A stretch of DNA of 51,428 nucleotides from a virus (Duplodnaviria > Caudoviricetes). Each line of letters begins with the position of its first letter. Within the stretch, counting starts at the first letter, position 1. The translations under genes were made by a program, and so were the position numbers. Below are positions 1 through 50,683 of this stretch, piece after piece. The notes under the pieces are model-generated. The model did no database searches and had not been told where the DNA came from. It worked only from the letters and a program-made list of their open reading frames with translations. The DNA is taken from the IMG/VR virus record IMGVR_UViG_3300012929_000023, positions 1-51,428 of that record; one strand, written 5' to 3'.

Positions 1-83
1 TAAGGCGGTATACAGACCTTACGCAACCACCCAATACTGTTAGTGATTTCCCAACTTAAGGGCTGCGCTACAGCGGTAACCGC

Positions 84-299
84 TCAATGCTTCGTGGCTT
101 CCTCGGCCGGAGCTTCCGCTGCGGGGTCGACGTCGTCCCAGACGACTGTGTCGTCGAAGGCGACTCCTTCGAGGTAGTCATCGGACTGGACGACTCCAGC
201 GTAAGCAGCTGGATTGATGGCGTATCCGTCAGTATCGACGTATACTGTGGGGTTGACGGGGGTGGGTTCAGCCACTGGCGTATTCTGTTGAACATTCAT
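84..299 (-). CDS. small acidic hypothetical protein
   Basis: ATG ORF with a purine-rich RBS (aaggaaag) and host-like codons; followed by a structured region and terminator across the window junction. Confidence 0.75.
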   Translation of the reverse strand: MNVQQNTPVAEPTPVNPTVYVDTDGYAINPAAYAGVVQSDDYLEGVAFDDTVVWDDVDPAAEAPAEEATKH

Positions 300-561
300 G
301 TTTCTTTCCTTTGGGACAAAATGTCCTAATTATAGGTGGTGTTTTAGTTCTAATAGAAGTTCGCGGAGTTTAAACCGTTCTCCTTCCATTCGCCACTTGA
401 GATATGGATCATACGAGTATGTCTCATATCCGTTGAAAGTAGTTGGGAAGTACGAAGGGTAGTAATCTCTGCTGAACTTATAATGAGAATCTCGTTTCAG
501 TTGACAGTAACTACAGTCGCAACCTTTACGAATTCCCTGTCGACAATGGAAGTCGACTGCC

Positions 562-972
562 TTAGAAATCAGGTGTGGAAACTGCTTCTTCGCTATCTCC
601 GTCTCGATCCGACTTCTTATGGTCTCCAGTTTGCTTGTCGAGGTTGTAGACATCAGAGAAATCACTGTTCTCCAAAGCCTTAGCGATGGCTTTGGTAAAT
701 TTGCCAATCTTCTCATTCAACTTCTTGTACTCTTCGGACTTCACCTTCGAGTAGCTCTCGCTTGCAACCTTACCGTTGATATCGTAGGTCACAACGTCAG
801 GCTTGATCTTCTTTAGATCAACCTCTAATTTTGAAAGCTTGTCCATAGCTTGGACTAAGGAGTCTGATCGACGGTTCAGTTCACGAGAAACTAAAGCGTC
901 GACGACTTTGTCTTCGACCTTCGGAGCGATGTTAATGATTTGTTCTGCAACTTTTGTTTGTACTGAATTCAT
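562..972 (-). CDS. hypothetical protein (Lys-rich, helical)
   Basis: 136-aa ORF on the arm's coding strand with protein-like composition. Confidence 0.75.
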   Translation of the reverse strand: MNSVQTKVAEQIINIAPKVEDKVVDALVSRELNRRSDSLVQAMDKLSKLEVDLKKIKPDVVTYDINGKVASESYSKVKSEEYKKLNEKIGKFTKAIAKALENSDFSDVYNLDKQTGDHKKSDRDGDSEEAVSTPDF

Positions 973-1001
973 TTACTCGGTCTTTCAATGATTTGTTTTA
1001 G

Positions 1002-1235
1002 TTACGATCTCTTGGGTTGTCTGATCCTGTTGGCGTGACGGCTGACAACACGGACAGCAACATGATCCAAAGAACCTGTCCGGTGGAAGCCGACATGGTC
1101 GAGTTCCTTAGCGTCACCTTTATGGACCTTGCCTGCTCGGATTGCTTTTCGTCTAGCTGTGTTACGAGCTTCTCTTCGTTTGACTTGCGCCGGAGAATTC
1201 TCATAGGCAGTTTCTTTCGCGTAATTCCTAGCCAT
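1002..1235 (-). CDS. small HNH-like endonuclease
   Basis: MARNY..E start, RxARNxARR, and KGDAKELDH...VVSRHANR pattern typical of small podovirus HNH proteins; aggagg RBS. Confidence 0.7.
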   Translation of the reverse strand: MARNYAKETAYENSPAQVKRREARNTARRKAIRAGKVHKGDAKELDHVGFHRTGSLDHVAVRVVSRHANRIRQPKRS

Positions 1236-1284
1236 ATAGTTAGTAGTCCTAACCTCCTTCTAAAGTGATCTTAATAATTTAAGA

Positions 1285-1506
1285 TCATGATTTTGTAAAT
1301 ACTCTTAATTTGGTATATTCAGTATCGCTCGATCCGAATAGATCGGAGAATTGAATGTTGGTTATGTCTTGGCTGTCCTTGACAGCTCGGGTTGCGTGAA
1401 GCCATGCAGCCATGCAATCAACGATCGTCTGGCGTGGCATCGTCACTTCCTGATATGGATAACCTAGGAAGTCCTTCTTCCGACGGATAGTCAGCTTTCT
1501 TACCAT
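1285..1506 (-). CDS. hypothetical protein
   Basis: 73-aa ORF in a packed minus-strand cluster. Confidence 0.55.
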   Translation of the reverse strand: MVRKLTIRRKKDFLGYPYQEVTMPRQTIVDCMAAWLHATRAVKDSQDITNIQFSDLFGSSDTEYTKLRVFTKS

Positions 1507-1919
1507 GGAAGGTGTCCTTACGACGGTCTTTCTTGGCTTTGATACGCAGGCGTTCTGCGCGATCAGCCGGGTGGTGTGTCTTATTCATTTCAAATAAGCG
1601 TAAATTAAAACACAGACTATTGCACCTAGCATTAACATCGATGCAATTTCTAAGTTATAGATGTGTTCAGCTGTGCTCATCTTAAAACTCCAGCGGTTTA
1701 ATTTTAGGAAGGATTAAGAACTCTTCTTCAACTAAGTAAACTAAAGCATCGGCAGGAGTTAAATCGTTGTAGTTAAGGATGTCTTCTAACGTATATGTAT
1801 CAAGCATATGTTCGGCTTCTTCGTAGGTAATTACGGCGGTCCTATTCCATTAGCCCATAATGCTATGTACTCTACAACAAGACACGAAAGAAAGCCTAGC
1901 CCGAACCAAAATGTCTTAT

Positions 1920-2237
1920 TCATTTGCGTTTCTTCCGTTTACGTTTTCTTGGTGGGATGATCCATCCAATTCTTCCTGCTCGTAAATATTCACCAGCTCT
2001 TTCAAAAATTCCCGCGTCTCGGTGGCGTCCGATAACACGTCTATTGCAGTAAGTACAGAGCAGTCCCCTGATTTCTCCAGTACGATGGTCATGGTCAACG
2101 CACAATCGGCTTTTGAAGACTCCGTGAGGTCTGCGACATATTGCGCAGCAGCCGCTCTGTTGGAGAAGTAAGTCAGCATATTGTTGCTCCGTTATCCCGT
2201 ACTTCTTAAGTAAGTAATTATTTCTGGTATTGTTCAA
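1920..2237 (-). CDS. recombination endonuclease VII family protein
   Basis: KYGIT...Q.G.CAIC...LCVDHDH.TGEIRGLLC..CN signature. Confidence 0.9.
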   Translation of the reverse strand: MNNTRNNYLLKKYGITEQQYADLLLQQSGCCAICRRPHGVFKSRLCVDHDHRTGEIRGLLCTYCNRRVIGRHRDAGIFERAGEYLRAGRIGWIIPPRKRKRKKRK

Positions 2238-2314
2238 GGTATCCGTTACGGATTAAACGTTGTAACGCTAGGATAGCAACGCCTGTCCAATAGTCTCTAA
2301 GTTCATCATCAAAC

Positions 2315-3184
2315 TTAATTATAAACGATCTTGCCATTTTTGTCAACTTCAACGATATGAGGGAGTGGATGCTTTACGACTTTAACGAAGTCAACGGGTC
2401 CGGAGGCGTAGAGGAAAGTGCGAAGCCCCGGAAAGCAAATATGCTTGAAGTCCGAGTAGCTAGCTTTCGTATCAAGCGTGATATTACCGCTTTTTCCCTC
2501 GGCTTGAGTGCCGCAAGTACATGCGGGGGCATGATCGCGTCCGACAATCTCTTTGTAAGTACGGACTCGGTCTCTAATGTTTTGTAGTCTAAGGTGGTGT
2601 TCATATAATGCTAAGTGTCCCAGAGTTTTATCCACAGCCAATAGAAAGGCAGATTGTTTATTCCGAACAACGTCGTCATCCAAGCTGCCACCCAGATAGC
2701 CGTCCAGTTGATCCAGATAACCGAACGGATCGTCCGTTGCGATCGACTTATCTTTGAACTTCTTAAAGCCAAAGCTGCTAGCAGACTTGACGTCCACAAG
2801 ATTACCATCAATAACACAGTCACGATGACCTTCGACCCCATCAAAAACGATAGCATCTTGCTCTCCTGTGACTTCGTGGCCAGCTGCCTTTGCTAAGGTT
2901 ATAACTAACGCTTCGATGATGTGTCCGTATCCGTACTTGATCTGCGCCCATGGAGGAAGGGGTTGGGCAAGATGAGGGGTATGGATGGAGTGCCAAAGTG
3001 CTTTCGGACAGCGCGGTCCCATCTGTGACAGACGGAGGCGAGGCGCTGACCTTGGACCCATACTTGCCATGAGCGCTGTAGATATAGTTGCTCCAAGCGT
3101 GTCGGATATCTGTGTTGTGAGCCAGCCATCTTTACTCCCTATGAGTTTGTAGATGTCAGGAATTAACGAATGTATGTCTGAAAT
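2315..3184 (-). CDS. PD-(D/E)XK (Cas4/RecB-like) exonuclease
   Basis: LRLSQMG..CPKALW, GHIIE, GHRDC.IDG.LVDVKS and GYLDQL motifs. The frame stays open upstream of the first ATG (3070) to a stop at 3200-3202; start placed tentatively at ATT 3184. Confidence 0.85.
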   Translation of the reverse strand: MSDIHSLIPDIYKLIGSKDGWLTTQISDTLGATISTALMASMGPRSAPRLRLSQMGPRCPKALWHSIHTPHLAQPLPPWAQIKYGYGHIIEALVITLAKAAGHEVTGEQDAIVFDGVEGHRDCVIDGNLVDVKSASSFGFKKFKDKSIATDDPFGYLDQLDGYLGGSLDDDVVRNKQSAFLLAVDKTLGHLALYEHHLRLQNIRDRVRTYKEIVGRDHAPACTCGTQAEGKSGNITLDTKASYSDFKHICFPGLRTFLYASGPVDFVKVVKHPLPHIVEVDKNGKIVYN

Positions 3185-3205
3185 GTGTTTGCTCGACTGC
3201 TAATA

Positions 3206-3273
3206 GATAGGTGTTTAAATGGCCTACGGAGGCCCGTGGTGCGTTTAAATCTTACAAGGCTACCTAAGTAGCC
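3206..3273. repeat. copy A of dyad-symmetric dispersed element
   Basis: gatag-gtgtttaaat...tggtgcgtttaaat-N7-ggctac ctaa gtagcc; similar to 9518-9595 and 22793-22910. Confidence 0.8.
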
Positions 3274-3430
3274 TTTGGGCAGATTTCTCTTGTTCTTCGA
3301 TGTATTTCTTCAGCATTGGCCTGTTGTTCAGGTCAGGCGGAGCGTTGATGATCGCAGCGGTAACTGGCTTACGATCACAGTCGCACTTCGGATACTGACA
3401 GTGTTCTTTGAACGTAGCTTGACAATCCAT
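3260..3430 (-). CDS. small Cys-containing hypothetical protein (56 aa, MDCQATFKEHCQYPKCDC...)
   Basis: manual translation; ATG overlaps the upstream TGA (TGATG coupling). Confidence 0.6.
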   Translation of the reverse strand: MDCQATFKEHCQYPKCDCDRKPVTAAIINAPPDLNNRPMLKKYIEEQEKSAQRLLR

Positions 3431-3741
3431 CAGTGTGCTCCGAAGTAAGTTGCTACAGTCTTGGAGATCATTCCGTAGATAATGAACTGAAGTCCACCGA
3501 GTGGCATAGCTGAAAGGAGAAGTAGCATCACGGTTTCACGGAATGTAAACGTCCACTTCTTCTTCTTATCGTCTTCCTTCTTCTCCGGGGTCTTCTTCTT
3601 AGCTGCTTCGGCTTTCTTCAAAGCCTTCGCTACCTGCTTGCTGATCTTCTTATAGATCGCGACTTCATCTGGAGTCTGCGGGGGTGGAAAACCATACTGC
3701 GGCGGCGGTGGGTATCCATAAGGCGGAGGATATCCATACAT
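3430..3741 (-). CDS. membrane-anchored protein with Pro/Tyr-rich N-terminus and Lys-rich linker
   Basis: YGYPPP repeats, basic stretch, C-terminal hydrophobic helix; gagagga RBS. Confidence 0.75.
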   Translation of the reverse strand: MYGYPPPYGYPPPPQYGFPPPQTPDEVAIYKKISKQVAKALKKAEAAKKKTPEKKEDDKKKKWTFTFRETVMLLLLSAMPLGGLQFIIYGMISKTVATYFGAH

Positions 3742-3767
3742 GATGTTTCCTCTCTTGTTAGTGGAGA

Positions 3768-3793
3768 CTGGGGCCTCGGTTAAGAGGCCCCAG
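3768..3793. promoter_or_regulatory. perfect 10-bp GC-rich hairpin at the left border of the non-coding region
   Basis: ctggggcctc-ggttaa-gaggccccag; no U-tract, so possibly a stabilising or processing hairpin rather than a terminator. Confidence 0.55.
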
Positions 3794-3799
3794 CTCGAT

Positions 3800-5625
3800 C
3801 TCGGCCCGCGATAACCGGGCGTCTGTTGTGCCTCTTAGGGAGGCTGCGAGAGCTGCTGGTGGTTGAGGACGCTGTTACACATCGCCTTCCTCCTTCTTCT
3901 GCCTAGGCGGCTTTCTTCAAAGCCTTTGCTACTGGCTTAGTCACGCTAGTCCGGCGTGTGAATAGATTGTGGTTTGGACTTGGCCTTCGTCAGGGCAAGG
4001 AGGGTATAGTCTACAGAACCCCTAGAATTGCGCTCGCCGTGTAAAGTCTTACTGTGAATGGCCGTTGAACTCCAGTTAGTGACTGTAAGGTCACAGGTAT
4101 GGGCACAGTCCCCTATGTATTTCAAGGTCAGACGGTACATCCACTACGCTTTGTACGCGCCATTGGCCAACGCTTCCGTTACTGCCACGGCCGACACGGT
4201 CGTAGTCTTGTGGTCCCTGAGTCAGGGAAGATAGACAGACGGTAGACTACCGTCCCATCTAGCATCAGTTTCCGTTAGACATCCTATATGACTCTAAAGC
4301 AGCTACTTTGTCCGTAACCCGGCTCGTCGTGCCGACGCGTCTCCGTCATAAGAATGAACGTCTCTCTATGTCTCCCTTCAATATCGGACTCATGTGGCTG
4401 CTAAGCTTTGGTCCTTCTATCCAGAACGATCCATACCCATCACGGTATGTCCTGAGCCATAGTCTTATATCCCGCTACAGAGCACTTACGTGCGCCTCTC
4501 ACCGATTACAGTGGTTTGCTTCAGGATACGACAGCATCTGGGGCTAGCTTCAAAGGCCGCATTTCAGATCATCGCCTCGGAGTTTGGTTACGACCAACGA
4601 CTCCGTACCTTAGACTAATTCCAACGGTACGTCAACTGCTTCGGAGGGGTCCGTACTTCGTCAGTTTAGTCGCAACCGGAGGTTGCTCTATTACCTGCCG
4701 CTACTATATCCACTTGCTGCTGCCTCAGTACGAAGGAGTCGAACCTTCACGCCTGAGTGGATGGGTTTCAGTAGAAGACCTTCCTCTTCTCTAGCTTTGT
4801 TCGGGCTGTTTATCCTAACGGCGGAGAGCCGTTGGAAGATGTACCGGACGTACTTCAGGCAGGCTATACCCACCTTCGGTTCAGTCTCTTACGTTTACTC
4901 ACAGTCACATCCCCACGGGAGAGCCTTCTGCAGCCAAGACAGGTTTTCAACGCGTCTTCTTAAAGCTTATACCGACCGGGTCGGTTGGTGTCGGACATCT
5001 CCCTCACTCACCGCGACTGTTACTCTACCGTTTCGAACGGCGCTTCCTTGTCCAGTAAGCTTAAGCTTTTTAAGCTTACTCAGAAGTGTCCCCTCGCGTG
5101 TATTGTACGTATGTTTAATGTGGTTGTCTCCCACAGAGATATCGGTCAGAACCTTAAGGTATCTTAAGGTTCGTTATACACACCTTAGTTTGCTTGATTT
5201 TAGCCTCCATCCAAGCTCACGGGCATCTGTACGCCTTTGCTTTTCAGGGCCAGTCTCGCCTTGCAGGGCATCGTACAGGCATTACCCCCTACGGGGCTGC
5301 AGAACTACAGTTCAAGGAGGGTGATCTTTACCTACATGTCTTGTAGTCTGGGAGCGCTTCACCTTGTGGAGGGGGCGCGCACACACCAAGCTCGGATCGC
5401 AACTCCGATTACAGCTGTATCGGCTGACACCAAACCATGCGTTTAATGCTACTTGGGATTACGTAGGTGGGTTCAGGCTGACTGCCGCCACACTGCGAGG
5501 ACGGCGGGAGAATAAGAAGCTTTATGCCGCAACTCCCACTGATCATGCTCCGCATCCCTTGTCAGGTCGAGCAAGCCACCACTGTGATGTTGATTCTGTC
5601 GTCAGACTATCCTGCACCACAGATA
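3800..5625 (+). ncRNA. candidate very large, highly structured non-coding RNA (antisense to flanking genes); boundaries and strand approximate
   Basis: no credible CDS in ~1.8 kb of an otherwise gene-dense genome; dozens of adjacent and nested stems; most G-U pairs work only on the + strand. Confidence 0.65.
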
Positions 5626-5661
5626 AAAGAAACAGGCGACACCGTTACTGATGCCGCCTGT
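5625..5661 (-). terminator. intrinsic terminator closing the pol-SSB transcript
   Basis: minus strand acaggcggcatc-agtaac-ggtgtcgcctgt (two G-U pairs) followed by ttctttt. Confidence 0.8.
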
Positions 5662-5758
5662 GTCCCGGTGCTCGGAGAAGGAGGGCGTAATAAGCACCGG
5701 GTAAAGTAGCCAGAGCTATGGGTAATTGCTTACCTCTTCGTTGGCTCTGGAATAGGTG

Positions 5759-5902
5759 TTAACAAAACGAACGAATCTCTTTCAATCCATTAATCATCTG
5801 TTGATACTGATAAGTCCAGTATCCGTAAAACGCAACGATAAGAAACAGTGTTGCAATCGTTGTGCCGATCATGTCGGCTTGGGTACATGTACTCAATTCC
5901 AT
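5759..5902 (-). CDS. small single-TM protein (47 aa, MELSTCTQADMIGTTIATLFLIVAFYGYW...)
   Basis: manual translation; aagga RBS; start overlaps the end of the SSB gene. Confidence 0.6.
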   Translation of the reverse strand: MELSTCTQADMIGTTIATLFLIVAFYGYWTYQYQQMINGLKEIRSFC

Positions 5903-6402
5903 AGTTCCTTCTGTGGCGGAGTAGCCATTGTCTCAGCGACTGCTGCTTGCTCCGCTGGTGTGTAATCCTTATGTGGGGTAAATGGATTAAGCTTGTCGAC
6001 ACGTACGGCCTTCAATCGAAGGGCACGTCCTTGTCCTTGTGCTCCGGGTATCCTGTGTTGGTAGCATTCGACAGTCAAGGTAAGATCACTGCCATGTCCT
6101 ACGAGCTGGTCTACTAACGGCATACCATCTGCTTTCATAACAAGTGGAGGAGCTAGTGGAGTGTTCTTACCCTTGACCCACATCTCGGGTTTACGGCTAA
6201 TTTGCATATTGAAGCCGTCTTCGTCCTTCTTGAGTTGGTTCTTAATTCCTTGTATCTGACCAATACCAGTCTGCAGTTCCCGAAGAATACCAAGACTCTT
6301 ATCGTCTGGGTAGAACTTCAATCCCCACTTACCGAACTGATCGAGTGCTACGAAGTGACAGTGCTGCCCCTTGCCTTGAAGGGTAACTAGTTCTGTGGCC
6401 AT
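5893..6402 (-). CDS. single-stranded DNA-binding protein (T7 gp2.5-like)
   Basis: position after the DNA polymerase; PP.V...DG......VGHGS..TLTVE.Y...LRLKAVRV pattern. Confidence 0.7.
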   Translation of the reverse strand: MATELVTLQGKGQHCHFVALDQFGKWGLKFYPDDKSLGILRELQTGIGQIQGIKNQLKKDEDGFNMQISRKPEMWVKGKNTPLAPPLVMKADGMPLVDQLVGHGSDLTLTVECYQHRIPGAQGQGRALRLKAVRVDKLNPFTPHKDYTPAEQAAVAETMATPPQKELWN

Positions 6403-6575
6403 TACTTATTAACAATCTCTTTCACTGTGATAATTTCTACGTCTGAGACATCCAAGAACGTCTCTTTGACGTACTCTCTAGCCACAGTCTCCGCGTGTTC
6501 AACGTTATCGCCTTGGATGGTTACAACACCACCGTCACGAATTGTATAATCATATTCGACTTCATAAAAAGGCAT
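6402..6575 (-). CDS. small hypothetical protein (57 aa, MPFYEVEYDY...)
   Basis: manual translation; start/stop overlaps with both pol and SSB. Confidence 0.7.
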   Translation of the reverse strand: MPFYEVEYDYTIRDGGVVTIQGDNVEHAETVAREYVKETFLDVSDVEIITVKEIVNK

Positions 6576-8512
6576 CAGTGTATCTCACTCCAGTTAAGTC
6601 CTACCCCGCCTGAGCCAGCTAAGGGACATTTTAAATTCAACTTCTTACCAGCGTTGACGATTTCTTCTTCGAACACATGCTGTATGTATTCAGCATATCG
6701 GATATCGTTGCGGGTCTCTATGACAACTTCGTCATGTACTATATTGGTTAATATATATTCAATTTCCTCCTTTGTCAACCTCTCTGAGGCAGAGATTGTC
6801 GCTTCTTTCATGATTATTTGTTCGCCGTTCTGCAGATATCCAGACATGCAAAGATGTCTCCTGAGTCCCACGGTATCCCCCGGTATAGCGACTTTTCGTC
6901 CATCAAGACCCACAAACCATCCCCGTCTTGCATCAGCGGGAATGACATTCTCTTTGAGCATCGCAAACCCTTCGTACCGGGATAATAGACGGTCAAGTGC
7001 GCCTTTAGTTTCATCCGTGGATGACGAAAGGATCTCTGCCAATTTCGAAATGCCTGCTCCCAACAAGAGAGCAAAGATGAACCGCTTAGAGGCCGCCCTA
7101 GTCTTGCAGACAGGACCAAGTATTCTTTGGTTGAGGCTATGGGGGTCAGTGCCATCTTCTTTCCTTCCATCGACAAGAGCTTTGGTAAACTCTGCATCGT
7201 CGATGTAATGTGCAAATATTCTTAACTGAATTCCTTCGGCGTCGACGCCAACCAATAGTCTGTTCTTCGGCGCACACCATAAGCTTCGGAGTTCTTTGCC
7301 GAGAAGCTTTGGTCTACCTTCTAAATCAAGATCGACGGGGATGTTAGCTGTGTTGGGCTTCTGATGAGCCATCCGGTGCGTCCATGCACCGATGCCAAGG
7401 AAGTCACCGTGGATGCGGCCATCAGGTTGAACAAGACCAATCCATTCAACTAATGTTCTTCTACGACTTTCGTAGAGAATTCTCTGCGCTAGAGTACGGG
7501 CGGCATCCGGAGCCGAGGTAGGGAGAGTCTCTAGGTTGGCTTCGTTGACTTTCCAGCCAGTCTTTCTCAATTCTTGAAGCTTAGTCTGACATAGTTTCAA
7601 GTCTGCGTCAAGCGCAGCAGACCTAGCTTTCGAGAACTTAAGTTGGTTAAGCGTTCTTTCGGTATCTATGTGAGTCTGCGTACGATCTACAGGAGCCCAG
7701 CCTGCATGAGACAAGACCTCAATGATTTGCTTGTGACTATTAGGGTTAAAAGACTCCCAACTGCACCGGCAGAAAGGCCCACCATTAAACTCACTAAGGT
7801 CACCATGCCCCAGAAACCTAAAGTCCGTCTTAGAAAGCGTTCCATGCTTTGTTACCTTCGGTGTGACTTCTCTGATTAACTTCAATCGATCAGGGAACAC
7901 CTTAAGTATCTCTTTATCTAAAGTACTTAACACTAGAGTTACACTAGTAAGATATTCTAGTGCTTTACTCTTGTTAAAGAAAAAGCCATTAGTATTTAAT
8001 GTATTAGTAATACTTACGAACTTATGTTCTCTTTCTAAAGAGTTCTTATGTTCTTCTTTAGATATATACTTAAGGTACTTAAGGTATATCTTATACGTTA
8101 TGTCGACATCACGTACGCAGTACTCCTCCATCTCTGGAGAGTACTTACTCCAGTCGGTGTACTTGCCCTTCAGAAGTCCGAACTCTTCGCCGTAACTCTC
8201 GACACTATGCGATTTTCGAGAGTAGTCAACGAGCTTGCTAACAAGATACGTATCGAGGCATTGTCTTCCAACATCTTCGAATGAGACCCCAAGAAGATTT
8301 TTAAGTACTGGTGCATCATAACCAAGCAGATTATGTCCAATGAAATACTTACAATGTTTCCAAAAATTAACAAAGCGTTCTCGCTCTTCTGGGTCCGTAG
8401 TTACATTTCTAAAAATGTGCTTATGACAGGTATCGATGTCCATACAGACGATCACCCAGACCTGCGTCGGGTTGACTAATCCATTGGTTTCTAAATCTAA
8501 GACTATTCTCAA
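6575..8512 (-). CDS. polA: family A DNA polymerase with 3'-5' exonuclease
   Basis: Exo I DLETNGL, Exo II GHNLLGYD, Exo III YC.RDV; motif A VDAEGIQLR, motif B R.ASKRFIFALLLG, motif C VHDE. Confidence 0.97.
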   Translation of the reverse strand: MRIVLDLETNGLVNPTQVWVIVCMDIDTCHKHIFRNVTTDPEERERFVNFWKHCKYFIGHNLLGYDAPVLKNLLGVSFEDVGRQCLDTYLVSKLVDYSRKSHSVESYGEEFGLLKGKYTDWSKYSPEMEEYCVRDVDITYKIYLKYLKYISKEEHKNSLEREHKFVSITNTLNTNGFFFNKSKALEYLTSVTLVLSTLDKEILKVFPDRLKLIREVTPKVTKHGTLSKTDFRFLGHGDLSEFNGGPFCRCSWESFNPNSHKQIIEVLSHAGWAPVDRTQTHIDTERTLNQLKFSKARSAALDADLKLCQTKLQELRKTGWKVNEANLETLPTSAPDAARTLAQRILYESRRRTLVEWIGLVQPDGRIHGDFLGIGAWTHRMAHQKPNTANIPVDLDLEGRPKLLGKELRSLWCAPKNRLLVGVDAEGIQLRIFAHYIDDAEFTKALVDGRKEDGTDPHSLNQRILGPVCKTRAASKRFIFALLLGAGISKLAEILSSSTDETKGALDRLLSRYEGFAMLKENVIPADARRGWFVGLDGRKVAIPGDTVGLRRHLCMSGYLQNGEQIIMKEATISASERLTKEEIEYILTNIVHDEVVIETRNDIRYAEYIQHVFEEEIVNAGKKLNLKCPLAGSGGVGLNWSEIH

Positions 8513-8679
8513 ATGTATTTTCTTCTAATCAAGCAGCCGTAGTGTGGTGTAAGGGTGCAGCCTTAGGGAGGGACGATCTCCCATTCACCCTAGCGTCCGT
8601 CGACTTCCACAATCTAAGCAACCCGCAGGGTTGCGCTAGTCCGGCGCCTTACCTCACCGTCTGATCACCGGCGAGGAAG

Positions 8680-13407: not shown

Positions 13408-15147
13408 CTACGCTGCAGCCCCTCCTCGACGAGACCCGAACGGCGCTCGACGCCTTGGTGCCCCAATAGTTGGGGCTTCCAAAGGAAGAGTCGTTGCTTC
13501 GGGTTTGCCGAGAAGCCTGTTGGCTTCGGTAAGTTCCTTGTGTGTATTCTTGACTTGGAGTTCGAGGTTCTCGGCGTACTTCCAGAGATCGCGGAACGCC
13601 GTAGCCATCGCTTCGTCGGCGTTGTGCGCGAGGTCTTTGATAACCTCCCACGGCCATCGCCGTGTAACTTCGATGCCGACAATACCTGCAGTCTTAGCGA
13701 AGGATGGAAGCTTGGCTTCGGCTTCGGCAAACTTCCTCGGATCGTCGATTTGACCGTTTTCGTCAAGACTTGCTACGACAATCTTATTCATCATCAACCT
13801 CTCGTGCAGCCACTTCTTCTGCACCGCAGTTATGACAGGTAGTCCGGCTTCTACTTGCGTCTTCTCGGCCTCACGTTCAGCCCGCTGTGCCTTGATCTCT
13901 TCACCGCTCTTCGGTGCGGCCACCGCAGTCATCTTCGGTGCAGCTTCAGCGAACGATTTCGCTGTAATTGGCTTGCCATCCTTGGAGAACAAACCTTTCT
14001 TGACCTTCACCGGTGGATACTGCATGTAGTTATCAGGGAGTTTAACTCCCAACCCCTTGTAGAATTTCTTGACATCCTGTCGATGCCCCCGGACAGAAGC
14101 AGGCGGGTAGATCAATTCGTAATCATCGTCGACGACATTCTGCAGGACGACGTTCTGCGCAGTCACCGCCGGATCGGCATCCGGATGTGGCGCAGCAGGT
14201 GAAGGTGCAGGAGGTGCCGTAGGCTTCGGCTGTTCCACAGGCTTCTGCTCAGGGGCAGCCGGTTTGTTAGTGCCGAACTGATGTCGTCTCTTACGTTCCG
14301 GCGCAGGAAGTGGTGCTTCCAACCCAAGTTCCTGTGCCTTCGCCTTGAACAACGAAACCCATTCAACGTCATCCATGTCGTCATCGGTAGACATGACGAT
14401 GTCAAACAGTTGTTCGTCGGAGAACATCTTCGTCTGATCTGGAAAGTCCTGCCGATACTTCGGCATCTCCAGTGCGACGTATTCCTCTGGCGTGTACTTC
14501 GCGACCTTGCCGAGTTCTTCGGCAGTCTTCCCCCAGTCGAGATGGTTGGATGTCTGACCCCAGTCGAAAGAGCCTTCGAATTCGGTATCGGAGATGTTGA
14601 TGACCGGGCCTTCGGTGGAGAGAAACGTAAACGTCGTCGGCCCCGTAGAGTTCATAAGCAATTCTTTGTGCAGAACAGTGTTCGCGAGTTCTTCGTCCAT
14701 CTTCTTGATGTCGCCGCCGAGCAGGTTGAAGAGATGATCGAACTTCGGCTGCAAGACTTCATCGACGAAGTGGAAGATGCTGCTATGCGCTGACTCCTTC
14801 TTCTCGAAACCTGAAAAGACACCGTCGATCATGACGCAGAGCAAATCCTTTTCGTCTTTGCCGACGACTAGACCGAACGGCATGACATCATCTTCGATGA
14901 AGCCTTCAGGGTAATCATGGAATATCATGACCAGCTTGTTCGGAGCTTCATTCCGCTGGAGATCCATGACTTCCTTGATGTCCGGTGTCGGGATTGAGTA
15001 GTCAGAGAAGAGGACGTTCTTGCCGTCCTCCTTGTCGACTACCATATACCCGAATGCTGAGCTGTACCCTGCACAGCATAGTTCGATGTAGTCTTCCGGA
15101 GCTACTTGATCCGGGTCTACGGTTACGATGACTTGGTTATGCGCCAT
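13408..15147 (-). CDS. large protein: degenerate class II glutamine amidotransferase-like N-domain, Pro-rich linker, helical C-terminus
   Basis: order of SSAFG, MIFH, VMPF, VMIDG and SSIFHFV..VL.P mirrors DGxG, HxR, HPF, HNG and SDT motifs of Ntn GATase-II; adjacent to the GGCT-like gene. Confidence 0.6.
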   Translation of the reverse strand: MAHNQVIVTVDPDQVAPEDYIELCCAGYSSAFGYMVVDKEDGKNVLFSDYSIPTPDIKEVMDLQRNEAPNKLVMIFHDYPEGFIEDDVMPFGLVVGKDEKDLLCVMIDGVFSGFEKKESAHSSIFHFVDEVLQPKFDHLFNLLGGDIKKMDEELANTVLHKELLMNSTGPTTFTFLSTEGPVINISDTEFEGSFDWGQTSNHLDWGKTAEELGKVAKYTPEEYVALEMPKYRQDFPDQTKMFSDEQLFDIVMSTDDDMDDVEWVSLFKAKAQELGLEAPLPAPERKRRHQFGTNKPAAPEQKPVEQPKPTAPPAPSPAAPHPDADPAVTAQNVVLQNVVDDDYELIYPPASVRGHRQDVKKFYKGLGVKLPDNYMQYPPVKVKKGLFSKDGKPITAKSFAEAAPKMTAVAAPKSGEEIKAQRAEREAEKTQVEAGLPVITAVQKKWLHERLMMNKIVVASLDENGQIDDPRKFAEAEAKLPSFAKTAGIVGIEVTRRWPWEVIKDLAHNADEAMATAFRDLWKYAENLELQVKNTHKELTEANRLLGKPEATTLPLEAPTIGAPRRRAPFGSRRGGAAA

Positions 15148-20068: not shown

Positions 20069-21202
20069 TTAAGCGGCGTTCTTTTCGTCGGCCTGTTCGA
20101 CCGTCTCTTGCATCGCGGTGTAGCGTGCCTTCCAGTCCTTGTTGCTGGTTAGCCGGTCAAGGTCGAAAGACAGCAAGAACAACTCCGCGAGAAACTCGTC
20201 ACTATCCGCGCCATTGACGCGGGTGAGCAACTTGGCCCGGAACTTCTCCGGATCGCCCTTCTTCTGCATGTCCTTCATGAAGTTGCGGATTGCGTAAACA
20301 GCGCCTTCAAATACTTCGACGCTATCGACATTGATACCTTTGACAGGCTCTCCGCTTTCCCGGCTGATAGTCGAGATCAAAGCTTGCCACGTCCCACCTT
20401 TCTTATTGGCAAGCGGAACATCCAGCGTCAGGAACGTAGGCACGCTGAACAGCTTGCGTTCATCCGTATTGCGAGCATTGCCGATACGGATAGGCTTCGG
20501 AGTGTTCTTGCGAGAACGGATATCCTCCGATCCATCCTCCGGAGCATCGCCTTCCAGCAGGAAGGAAAGGTTGATGTTTCGCATATTCTCGACGCGCGTC
20601 CATTGCTTATCGATCTTGAGCGCTTGCACTAACGCCTTACGGCCGGCAGACTTGCGTCCGTTGATACGGTTGCGCTCGGCGACCAGCCAATCGTCGCCCT
20701 TGGTCTTGTACTTTGCGGGCGTTGTCGCTGCACCGTTCTTCGCCTTTGTCAGGCCGTCGAGATCATGATCAAACGCCTTGCAGATCGGAGTAAGACTGTA
20801 CAGATAATCGACAACTTCGATGTTGGTGAATTTCGTCAGCCCGTCTTTGTCCTTAGACGGGATAGCAAACGTATTCAACAATGTCTTGTTATCCACATCC
20901 TTGACACCCGGCTCCGGGATTAAGTGCAGTTGTTCCGGAGACATGATATCATTGAGGTAGTCGAGCATAGCCAAAGACGCCATGTCTCTGACTTCCTTAG
21001 CATCAGCCGCTTCATTAACGATAGTTTCAAAGCCATCGTCAAACAACTCGGCAATGAGTTTGATACCATCGATCGTGATAGGTATCAATTCGACTTCCTT
21101 TGCCGGGATCACGGCGGGAACCTGCGCGGGAACAACGGGTGCCTGCGCTGCATCAGCGGCCACGTTAACGGGCCGATGGGTACGGTTAGGACGGTTAGCC
21201 AT
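20069..21202 (-). CDS. large early protein of unknown function (377 aa)
   Basis: ATG 21202 with aaggaag RBS, host-like codon usage, own terminator; ends in AA. Confidence 0.85.
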   Translation of the reverse strand: MANRPNRTHRPVNVAADAAQAPVVPAQVPAVIPAKEVELIPITIDGIKLIAELFDDGFETIVNEAADAKEVRDMASLAMLDYLNDIMSPEQLHLIPEPGVKDVDNKTLLNTFAIPSKDKDGLTKFTNIEVVDYLYSLTPICKAFDHDLDGLTKAKNGAATTPAKYKTKGDDWLVAERNRINGRKSAGRKALVQALKIDKQWTRVENMRNINLSFLLEGDAPEDGSEDIRSRKNTPKPIRIGNARNTDERKLFSVPTFLTLDVPLANKKGGTWQALISTISRESGEPVKGINVDSVEVFEGAVYAIRNFMKDMQKKGDPEKFRAKLLTRVNGADSDEFLAELFLLSFDLDRLTSNKDWKARYTAMQETVEQADEKNAA

Positions 21203-21297
21203 AGTAGTCTCTTCCTTATCGGACACACGGAAACCGAATGGTTTCCTACATGATTGTCCGCCTTTGCCCTGACTTTCGAGAGGGCAATGGCAGATAA

Positions 21298-21761
21298 TCA
21301 AAACCAATCTGTTCTACCGTCCGAACGATAGACAGTATGCCAGTAACGCTCTTGTTCAATCATCACCGGATCAACGGCCATTGTGCCGATGATTATAACC
21401 AATGGATCAGGATAGTACTCAACCTCAAGCGGGATAGCAGGCACGGAATAGTGAGGCGCTTCGCAACCATAGTGGTACGAATTACTCACCTTGAAATGGT
21501 AGCCAAGGTGTTCATTGTATCGGTTAAATCCGTTGTTGTGACGGACGGTTATTGTATGCGTCATGTGTCTCCCCTTTTGTTCATAATCCGTGCGGCATCC
21601 ACGCCCCCGACCGCGCAAAGAACTAGCGCGATGACTTCATTGCCATCAACGTTGCCCATGATGGTTAGCAACCTTTCGTATTCCTTCACGATGGCCGGGT
21701 ATTCAGATGTTAAGATAACATCAGCCATCGCTTCTTCGATCTCAGGTATTGTATTGAACAT
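21298..21761 (-). CDS. two small early hypothetical proteins (21561-21761 and ~21298-21564)
   Basis: strong RBSs (aggggag) and ATGA overlap. Confidence 0.6.
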
Positions 21762-22792
21762 CGATCTCCCCTTTTCAATTCACCAAAGAACAAGGTTAGC
21801 ACATGATCCGACCTAACACCATCACGAAATCGTGATATACGATGGTTTTCATCACAACTCCGTGATCGGGAGGTATGCAGATTTGAGGGCACTCGTTATG
21901 TTGCAGTGCCGAAAAGCTCTGCGCTGGCTGCATACGTGTTGCGGTGCAACATTCATTTAGAAGGCCGTGGATTGATCGGGCTTGCCCATGACCGGATGAT
22001 ACACGGATTTGAAACGCTATCCCTTGGCCATCACAAGTCCAGCAATCGGTAGAATAATATTCTCTTTTTCCATGGTGCACTGCACCCAATATGTACCTTT
22101 TGGTAGGGAAGTCACACTCGGGCGCCCGGGCAACTCGCCCCTTATGTATAACGTATGTTAAACGAGCGAGACTCGCTTGAGGTATACGTTATTAGGAGTA
22201 TCTTCTTAGGGGTAATACGCGAGAGTAGAGTATTCTCGCGTTACTCTTTCTTACTCTAGAGTACTCTAGTACTAAAGAGAACTCTATCGTATTCTTAAGG
22301 TAATTATTGCTATTGAGAATCAGTTGCAACAAGGTTTCGCTCAAACCGGTTGTGGGGGTCGAGGGGTCGAATTGCAGCAATGAACTCCACCTAAAGAATT
22401 ACTCGTAGAAATTTCTACACGGAGAAAGTATCGGATAATTTTTTCCGGTATATTTTTACGATACCTTCTTCAAACTCTTTCTGGATTCGGTCTACACACG
22501 GAATGTACCGAAGTTTGTTAACTTCAACTAAGAAAGTAGAAATATCTTTATCGAACATCACATATCCAACTCTGGTCTATTTCGGTTGCTGTTATGTTTT
22601 CTGTCACAAAATCTCCTTGATCTGACGGATTTTCAAATCATAGTCATCGAAGACTAAATCGTAGCTTTGGATCGGACTCAGTCCCGGACCAGCAATGACT
22701 ACCCAGTTTATCCGTTTTGGCTTGTCTAGAATGTAATCTACATCGCTAGATTTCGTTTTAGTTATTTTCATCGAAATATCCTTATTTTACTC

Positions 22793-22910
22793 GATAGGCG
22801 TTTAAATGCCATTAGAAGCCCACTGGTGCGTTTTGTACTTTCGAAGCTAGGGTGGTAGCCAGTGGTACATTTAAACTCACCCACGGCCTTCTAATTGAAT
22901 CCTAGAGGCA
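22793..22910. repeat. copy C (complete, two-armed) of dyad-symmetric dispersed element
   Basis: attagaag..tggtgcgtttt-core agctag ggtg gtagcc-atttaaactcaccca..cttctaat. Confidence 0.8.
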
Positions 22911-22912
22911 TT

Positions 22913-50601: not shown

Positions 50602-50683
50602 GTCTGGAAACGGTGGGACTCTTACCCACAACCTCCGCCGTTACAGGGCGGACTCATACACTTGAGCTACGAATCCAGATCAA

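Follow-up and report, generated by a model that had tools for sequence, protein, structure and literature searches.

To our knowledge, few large structured RNAs other than ribosomal RNA (rRNA) have been described in bacteria and phages, among them GOLLD, ROOL, OLE and raiA, and none has an established function. The structures of large bacterial and phage RNAs have been solved only recently. GOLLD is found near tRNA islands, sometimes carries tRNAs in its linker and has been pulled down with ribosomes; ROOL, also large and structured, occurs in phages and prophages, in many cases close to tRNA genes, and no protein partner or function is known for it (PMC12286853, available part). The DNA analysed here, referred to throughout as the window, is the whole 51,428 bp stretch of a complete IMG/VR virus record (IMGVR_UViG_3300012929_000023) from a soil metagenome assembly. 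Our subject is its interval 3742–5892, which lies between the genes for a single-stranded DNA-binding protein (SSB) and a 103-residue protein. The minus strand of this interval probably codes for a long structured noncoding RNA, a divergent representative of a family not described so far, a reading that draws on sequence comparison. The RNA body is about 1.7 kb in the window and about 1–3 kb in its relatives, and the family belongs to uncultured soil phages with genomes of about 50 kb, where it occupies the position between the SSB and exonuclease genes. The proposed element is:

3900 to 5621 (ends approximate), minus strand: proposed body of the long noncoding RNA, which is noncoding, has no Rfam match and is syntenic with the covarying RNA of the relatives.

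The position was established from the DNA polymerase. As a query it retrieved 84 relatives from IMG/VR (30–62% identity, many on contigs of 48–53 kb), 80 of which were kept for analysis, and a C-terminal polymerase alignment retrieved at least 405 relatives from JGI metagenomes, of which 80 were kept. Nearly all of the 80 IMG/VR loci share the order polymerase, SSB homologue, 1.6–4.3 kb of sequence and exonuclease, with one or more small genes preceding the exonuclease. The window has the same gene order, which places its interval at the family position on the gene-sense strand. The four or five most distant loci are without an SSB homologue and have a polymerase–exonuclease spacer of only 400–1100 nt. 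A stretch poor in open reading frames (ORFs), defined as at least 1 kb without an open frame of 100 codons, is present in 33 of the 80 loci, mostly within the SSB–exonuclease interval, and the SSB homologues of the relatives adjoin this ORF-free interval. The 113 interval sequences fall into 50 sequence clusters, in which the window is a singleton. Polymerase identity to the nearest cultured phages is just 29–38%, and the polymerase query found only four distant loci in GTDB genomes. No IMG/VR relative was found with the SSB protein alone as the query. Loci found via the exonuclease, which are about 40% identical and mostly from other habitats, lack a similar interval and were excluded from the counts. 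One metagenome contig of 142,532 bp carries the same polymerase locus three times, about 49.5 kb apart (L222, L225 and L227); this amounts to almost three genome copies joined head to tail, and the contig is either a concatemer or the product of assembling through a circularly permuted genome.

The evidence for base pairing comes from the relatives: compensatory changes were found in one sequence cluster, cluster A, and structure is suggested in clusters 1 and 5, the window belonging to none of the three. Cluster A was grown by iterated nhmmer searches to 14–15 full-length members, and 14 sequences make up the alignment A2. RNAalifold gives 96 consensus pairs for A2, 52 of which have changes on both sides compared with 26.1 in shuffled alignments, and paired cells amount to 95.3% compared with 82.7% in the shuffles. 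The covariation score of 0.423 compares with 0.187 after shuffling, with none of 500 shuffles scoring as high, and it is 0.04–0.09 when the partners are slid by 1–3 columns. Long-range covarying helices (columns 223–284 with 561–609) close a domain of about 390 columns around three modules that resemble the T-arm of tRNA. The related intervals are thereby shown to be under a base-pairing constraint on the sense strand. Covariation in the SSB–exonuclease intervals of related phages had been named in the initial annotation of this DNA as a check on a structured RNA; the compensatory changes in the 14 sequences of cluster A are strong, and conservation of the relatives' intervals is compensatory rather than of the codon type.

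Consensus folding in 120-column windows, with the polymerase gene of the same phages as the control, points in the same direction. For five phages with 64% nucleotide identity in the interval and 68% in the polymerase gene, the interval has a mean alifold z score of −2.50 on the sense and −2.11 on the antisense strand, and 48 and 35% of its windows fall below −3; the polymerase gene has −0.53 and −0.75, with 7% of the windows below −3. The values for cluster 5 are −1.62 and −2.03 versus −0.19 and −0.15 for its polymerase, and cluster 1 behaves similarly. Interval alignments within clusters (1–3 kb, 68–76% identity) do not evolve as coding sequence: indels divisible by three number 12 of 53 in the pair L124/L127 and 11 of 59 and four of 28 in other alignments, and the mismatches are evenly distributed over the three phases (by codon position 179/171/170 between L124 and L127), with no three-base periodicity. 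The periodicity test can discriminate, and small genes can be told apart, since short patches of the same intervals are strongly periodic with few gaps (p of 1e-4 to 1e-9).

The strand can be read from several markers. A descriptor that corresponds to the tRNA T-arm consensus (a five-pair stem closed by G–C with the loop UUCRANY) was applied to 242.9 kb of interval sequence and finds 113 hairpins, all of them on the sense strand and none on the antisense; outside the intervals (1.42 Mb) the counts are 27 sense and one antisense. Many relatives have no such hairpin under this strict rule. Several G–U pairs are invariant in all 14 sequences of A2, and the sense-strand consensus energies are lower than the antisense energies in most windows. 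Since the T-arm counts, the invariant G–U pairs, the consensus energies and two modules in the window itself all agree, the RNA is assigned to the gene-sense strand, which is the minus strand of the window; on these markers it is neither antisense nor on the plus strand. The two modules are:

5192 to 5216, minus strand: M1 hairpin, stem GCUUGG/UCAAGC (five Watson–Crick pairs and one G–U pair) and loop AU-GGAGGCUAAAA, found by profile match.
4732 to 4748, minus strand: T-arm-like hairpin GAAGG-UUCGACU-CCUUC; the two strands of the 51 kb window contain no other exact descriptor match.

The M1 profile was built from its contexts in 23 relatives, with the window excluded, and gives a single significant match when both strands of the window are searched (E = 6.9e-6; the next match has E = 3). 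The wider match extends over 5224–5181 (minus strand) and takes in an upstream GCCCGUG. The loop ..UGGAGGCUAAAA.. remains constant while the stem sequence varies among clusters, and M1 is found in 12 other clusters, not in all. Stems of at least five contiguous pairs occur in 17 of 24 instances, compared with 24% of 496 mismatched-flank controls. The loop sequence GGAGGCUAAAA is Shine–Dalgarno-like. The T-arm of the window is matched by a motif profile (E = 0.0038), and it tips a longer irregular hairpin that includes the pair 4708–4714/4756–4762 listed in the initial annotation and that lies inside the best-conserved block of the interval (see below). An exact 24 nt pattern around this T-arm has no match in IMG/VR. 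M1 is located 463 nt upstream of the T-arm, an order shared by most relatives in which both are present. The window is linked to the family by its position, the T-arm, M1, the order of M1 and T-arm, and a tiny leader ORF. It is a divergent member with a predicted fold of its own, because the cluster A covariance model sees only its T-arm and only two motif profiles match its body.

Several observations weigh against this assignment, or against a single long RNA. The folding of bases 1–7700 was scanned in 200 nt windows against 25 dinucleotide shuffles (19 windows inside the interval and 57 outside). The mean z score inside the interval is −0.89 (plus) and −0.85 (minus), compared with −0.83 and −1.02 elsewhere in the region; the interval thus folds no more stably than its coding neighbours and its strands are not separated. 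The z score is exceptional (−3.3 to −4.8) only at 4901–5300, and the exceptional stability that the initial annotation had implied for the whole interval is limited to this patch. Strands are not separated by cluster 5 (three sequences) either. Searches of 160 related loci with blastn and nhmmer found no full-length homologue of the RNA body, the sole match being a weak one to locus L131 (E of about 7e-4). Neither sequence nor covariance-model comparison revealed whole-domain homology of the window to another family member: covariance model R1, which describes the domain of cluster A with the best support, recognizes nothing in the window but the T-arm (E = 1.8) and gives a higher score to the real tRNA-Tyr of the phage, and among about 70 motif profiles only those of M1 and the T-arm match the RNA body at E < 0.01. 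Module content differs between clusters, which would also fit several small RNAs, and since a few relatives have real tRNA genes in the interval, part of the T-arm modules may be no more than tRNA genes or what is left of them. Finally, a terminator separates the SSB gene from the RNA body, and no convincing promoter of the σ70 type was found after it.

Conservation within the lineage of the window itself was examined with near-relative contigs from soil runs of two other studies (X2, X3 and X6), aligned to 1900–8600. The following features emerge from the contig pieces listed, which leave some segments, such as 5147–5219, without a piece:

4611 to 5146, minus strand: best-conserved block, about 97–98% identical over aligned letters to near relatives from other soil runs.
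4666 to 4690, minus strand: 25 nt segment absent from X2 and X3, which holds one complete hairpin, GCAACC-UCC-GGUUGC (4672–4686).
4563 to 4610, minus strand: segment replaced by 13 letters in X2 and X3, with a net loss of about 35 nt that corresponds to one complete interrupted hairpin (about 4578–4605).

Over the block, X3 record 20 has 12 other letters and 55 gap letters in 536; X2 record 13 (4618–5015) has seven other letters in 398 and 25 gap letters, and X6 record 28 (4624–4936) has nine in 313 and 25 gap letters. Identity is about 90–92% at 4162–4562, 95–96% at 3427–4224 and 94% at 5220–5484. The listed pieces of flanking genes are 92–96.6% identical; the interval, at 90–98%, is therefore at least as constrained as the genes. 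Both of the readable indels take out one whole hairpin each, and in one near relative the SSB-proximal 400 nt or so (5485–5892) are swapped for unrelated sequence. A second assembly of the source run covers 1900–6156 with zero differences, so the interval is not an assembly join or artefact. Among the sequencing runs listed as containing the window sequence, none is of RNA.

The modules suggest how such an RNA might work. Readers of the tRNA elbow, among them RNase P and the enzymes that modify the T-arm, recognize a T-arm that is stacked on a neighbouring helix. The three T-arms of cluster A lie 70–110 nt apart; two directly precede another hairpin, and the third has a hairpin and a 3 nt spacer in front of it, much as the anticodon arm and variable loop precede the T-arm in a tRNA. 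The RNA might act through mimicry of RNAs that the host recognizes, a mechanism to which we would give a minority chance. Under this mechanism the T-arm modules, each stacked on the adjacent helix, would imitate the `top half' and elbow of tRNA, while the exposed GGAGG loop would imitate a ribosome-binding site (RBS), with the 3′ end of 16S rRNA as a possible pairing partner. The RNA would then engage host machinery that recognizes tRNA or mRNA (RNase P, T-arm-modifying enzymes, the 30S subunit), and the outcome could be a decoy or sponge, a processing substrate that is cut to pieces, or a scaffold of the ROOL/GOLLD type. The fuller proposal, that one transcript of 1.3–3 kb carries several tRNA-elbow mimics and an exposed Shine–Dalgarno mimic and either docks on ribosomes or tRNA-processing enzymes or forms ROOL/GOLLD-like multimers, is doubtful. 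If such a single 1.3–3 kb transcript were real, it would be the longest known structured nonribosomal phage RNA and would reprogramme or shield translation in infected soil bacteria.

The same modules can be explained by a cluster of separate small RNAs or tRNA-derived remnants, that is, a decayed or exapted tRNA island processed at its tRNA-like modules, the pieces of which act separately or not at all. We consider this unlikely. In several relatives the T-arm-like hairpins are 65–120 nt apart, yet spacings of 65–75 nt are too short for complete tRNAs. Six of the 113 intervals contain a tRNA called by ARAGORN (L103 and L211 one for Ile-GAU, L216 one for Cys-GCA, and three others a doubtful one), but the program finds none in the 14 loci examined or in the interval of the window. 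A cluster A unit matches the Rfam tRNA model below threshold (16.9 bits, E = 3.1; threshold 29), covariance model R1 aligns to tRNA-Tyr and the module content across clusters is a mosaic; on the other hand, the covarying long-range helices that close the domain of about 390 columns are unlike independent tRNA-sized genes, and the sequence between modules is conserved as well. Both GOLLD and ROOL likewise occur near tRNA islands (PMC12286853, available part). Real tRNA genes are also present elsewhere in these genomes: family members carry one to three, among them Leu-UAA and Ile-GAU upstream of the replication genes or primase (L106, L118, L120 and others), and the sole ARAGORN tRNA of the window is tRNA-Tyr-GUA at 50604–50677.

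A further explanation replaces the RNA by a DNA element, either a replication origin or another protein-binding region, and a transcript made at the origin might act as a primer for DNA synthesis, in the way that RNA II of ColE1 serves a family-A polymerase. The location among primase-helicase, polymerase, SSB, exonuclease and endonuclease VII genes suits this explanation, as do a sign change in the plus-strand GC skew near 4000–4250, inside a block of co-oriented genes, and the fact that conserved hairpins could also form in single-stranded DNA. The asymmetry between strands is of the RNA type, however: an invariant G–U pair would be A–C on the other strand, and the T-arms occur on one strand. 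The interval has no iterons or notable direct repeats and is richer in G+C than its flanks, and the cumulative skew over the genome mostly follows gene orientation. A DNA element is quite improbable as the main explanation. Two near-perfect palindromes, at 5054–5080 and 5149–5172, lie inside the patch of strongly negative z score; they are built on AAGCTT and CTTAAG, which we take to be HindIII- and AflII-type sites, and being palindromes they fold alike on either strand.

The initial annotation had proposed a structured RNA of about 2 kb on the plus strand, antisense to the genes. All 18 sequence strings that it quoted are present where it placed them, and some of the hairpins that it listed do have G–U pairs on the plus strand only, but the markers in the relatives favour the minus strand. 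The plus strand also has the lower folding energy in 3601–4000 and 5201–5400, and an open frame of 236 codons shows that it has few stop triplets. The minus strand has the lower energy in most windows of 4001–4700 and 5501–5700, and the sense strand of the body is purine-rich (A 27.2%, G 27.7%, C 24.1%, U 21.1%), leaving the plus strand pyrimidine-rich. With all family-level strand markers and both of the shared modules on the minus strand, the antisense assignment is not upheld and a plus-strand RNA is very improbable.

Within 3742–5892 no ORF has a coding signal, and no frame is positive under the codon usage of the phage. The longest open frame, on the plus strand (4614–5324, 236 codons from stop to stop), translates into a sequence rich in Arg, Ser and Leu and has no PHROG match. 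Under alternative codes (TAG as Gln, or TGA as sense in table 4) plus-strand frames of 358–367 codons open up, and nothing in them is protein-like. The interval in the window is therefore read as noncoding, from the missing codon signal, the Arg/Ser/Leu-rich frames and the lack of a PHROG match. That it holds no credible gene, as first proposed, stands as far as frames with a coding signal are concerned, and a check by the codon usage of the phage gives none beyond the leader ORF; the claim overlooked this ORF of 15 codons with a strong RBS (3882–3835, minus strand). A 31 nt stretch (3908–3938) just 5′ of the leader ORF is 90% identical to 3609–3639 inside the 103-residue protein gene and could be a duplication remnant or a pairing partner. 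A hidden protein gene, obscured by an alternative code, frameshifts or decay into a pseudogene, could appeal to the long recoded frames and the 31 nt copy of the neighbouring gene, but it is scarcely credible given that code 11 reads normally through the rest of the genome, that no frame has a codon signal, that the related intervals lack periodicity and carry indels with lengths not divisible by three, and that a second assembly is identical base for base.

We return to the long minus-strand RNA and to the ends of its interval, where the following features were found:

5622 to 5661, minus strand: intrinsic terminator-like hairpin of 12 pairs (seven G–C) with a T-rich tail, TTCTTTTATC, from the terminator scan.
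3835 to 3882, minus strand: leader ORF of 15 codons (MCNSVLNHQQLSQPP-stop) read from the sequence, with GAAGGAGG just upstream and its ATG at 3882, ending Gln-Pro-Pro-stop.
3770 to 3820, minus strand: two G+C-rich hairpins (3820–3804 and 3795–3770) in the gap between the leader ORF and the RBS of the next gene, read from the sequence; 3804–3820 is also in the terminator scan.

On the 5′ side, the stop codon of the SSB gene at 5893 is followed by a trailer of about 230 nt with two hairpins and then by the terminator, so that the outer 270 nt or so (5622–5892) belong to the SSB gene as its 3′ trailer and terminator. The minus-strand terminator of the initial annotation is indeed present (stem 5661–5632, then a T run), and a G+C-rich hairpin followed by a U run stands at 5622–5661 on the transcribed strand. 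The region has three terminator-like sites compared with 3.5 expected from shuffles; since this number is not in excess, the call rests on the position and quality of the site. A terminator within 350 nt of the SSB gene is found under a strict rule in nine of 43 clusters. In cluster A the conserved structured sequence starts directly after the SSB stop codon, and inspection by eye showed no convincing conserved promoter there. No phage RNA polymerase was recognized among the proteins of the window, and transcription of the interval is therefore probably dependent on the host enzyme. The ends of the RNA are set by the terminator and by the region of the leader ORF and putative attenuator, and the 1.8–2 kb first proposed is reduced to a body of at most about 1.7 kb (roughly 5621–3900).

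At the 3′ side, the leader ORF has counterparts in the relatives (for example L099, L090, L118, L133 and L100), which are ORFs of about 10–15 codons with a strong RBS of their own that always end in CC[A/U]CCUUAA, that is, Pro-Pro-stop; a G+C-rich hairpin and then the RBS of the next gene follow. Pro-Pro-stop motifs have a known link to ribosome stalling. The hairpins at 3770–3820 are a candidate attenuator or processing site, and together with the Pro-Pro-stop leader ORF they probably control the next gene, which encodes the 103-residue protein. By analogy, the leader ORF is a candidate ribosome-stalling leader peptide controlling a small gene of the membrane-protein-like kind. We considered whether the GGAGG loop of M1 pairs with CCUCC in the Pro-Pro codons of the leader ORF and rejected the idea, because many phages combine GGAGG with CCACC, and these would not pair.

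The genes around the interval are:

8512 to 6575, minus strand: polymerase, from the gene order at the locus.
5893 to 6402, minus strand: SSB, a phage single-stranded DNA-binding protein of the T7 gp2.5/Enc34 type with 169 residues and the upstream neighbour, from its ORF and structural look-alikes.
3430 to 3741, minus strand: 103-residue protein and downstream neighbour, from its ORF; the sequence is rich in Pro and Tyr at the start and in Lys in the middle, and hydrophobic at the end.
3070 to 2315, minus strand: Cas4-type exonuclease, from the gene order at the locus.

The minus-strand genes run from about 23 kb down to position 1 and include those for primase-helicase, family-A DNA polymerase, Cas4-domain exonuclease, endonuclease VII and a protein of the uracil-DNA glycosylase (UDG) superfamily, and the plus-strand half carries terminase, portal-type adaptor, major head and tail genes. 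The 169-residue protein has no match in Pfam or PHROG searches, and its family profile gives nothing significant against PDB sequences (best E = 0.086). Its look-alikes in an atlas carry Phage_ssDNA_bind, Enc34_ssDNA-bd or SBB_T7 (feature score 0.96–0.97; structure TM 0.67–0.69), in line with the SSB that the initial annotation had assumed. The protein resembles an ordinary SSB of the T7 gp2.5/Enc34 type, and therefore no special RNA partner is suggested. The start of the 103-residue protein gene is kept in the relatives (motif profile E = 0.0022; also by nhmmer). An element at 3093–3153 (minus strand), in the gap between a 56-residue ORF and the exonuclease gene, matches a motif profile of the relatives (E = 0.0095) and is conserved. 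At the switch between the minus- and plus-strand gene blocks, 823 nt (22090–22912) without ORFs of at least 70 residues lie in the A+T-richest part of the genome (GC 0.41); this is likely to be a divergent promoter region and is also another candidate origin. Two large proteins of the early region have no PHROG match (13408–15147, minus strand, 579 residues; 20069–21307, minus strand, 412 residues).

The family is common, judging from the number of relatives with the matching polymerase (IMG/VR, 84; JGI metagenomes, at least 405), and its position is fixed and easily recognized, which makes it an entry point to the function of large phage RNAs. The recognizable modules, the T-arm mimics and the GGAGG loop, suggest partners that can be tested. 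The conserved Pro-Pro-stop leader peptide may be a new device for phage gene control. More generally, gene-free kilobases in the genomes of uncultured phages can be functional RNA and not assembly noise.

The interval could not be assigned to a known RNA family, in agreement with the initial annotation. Rfam, GOLLD and ROOL included, gave no match: the window was searched at the gathering score and with E as high as 10, two relatives with E as high as 5 and eight relatives at the gathering score; the entries listed for the window at E up to 10 (microRNA, CRISPR repeat and small nucleolar RNA; E of 2.5–8.8) are attributed to chance. A blastn search of GenBank phages with the interval found nothing, as did those with the intervals of two relatives, and a search of the full-text literature, which left supplementary tables outside its reach, found no description of this RNA.

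Among known systems GOLLD is similar in being phage-encoded, very long and multi-domain with covariation support. Both are associated with tRNA, the new family having tRNA-like modules and a few real tRNAs inside the RNA. The conserved 3′ and variable 5′ regions of GOLLD also have a parallel in the window, where the SSB-proximal part is replaced in a near relative and 4611–5146 is kept. The new RNA differs in its length (about 1.3–3 kb versus roughly 800 nt for GOLLD) and in being fixed in the replication module of lytic-looking soil phages. ROOL is likewise a large structured phage RNA, from which the new RNA is set apart by the lack of an Rfam match and by its size and motifs. Viral tRNA-like structures and processing signals of the mascRNA type are other examples of structures that resemble tRNA. 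The likeness to tRNA itself lies in the five-pair stem closed by G–C with its UUCRANY loop, in the arrangement of arms in cluster A and in the alignment of a model built from this unit to a real tRNA. The differences are that the window interval contains a T-arm only and no cloverleaf (none by ARAGORN, and none by the Rfam tRNA model in 3600–6000 at E up to 10), that the `anticodon-like' loop of cluster A is mostly 6 nt and that the T-arm is followed by a closed hairpin or long-range helix, where a tRNA has its acceptor stem with a free 3′ end. Like transfer-messenger RNA (tmRNA), the RNA would combine a tRNA-like element and mRNA-like features in one molecule longer than a tRNA; unlike it, it has no tag reading frame and is several times longer, and neither ARAGORN nor Rfam finds a tmRNA. 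A 2023 survey of structured RNAs in IMG/VR, which shares the data source and the kind of evidence, reports candidates of 29–151 nt, some of them tRNA-like, and in its available part describes no RNA on the kilobase scale (PMC10690425). One of its candidates overlaps tRNA-Cys calls in 11 of 11 regions (PMC10690425, available part); it could be a piece of the present family. The family is thus a new one of a known kind, the large ornate phage RNA, distinguished by its unusual length, its fixed place in the replication module and its embedded tRNA-arm mimics.

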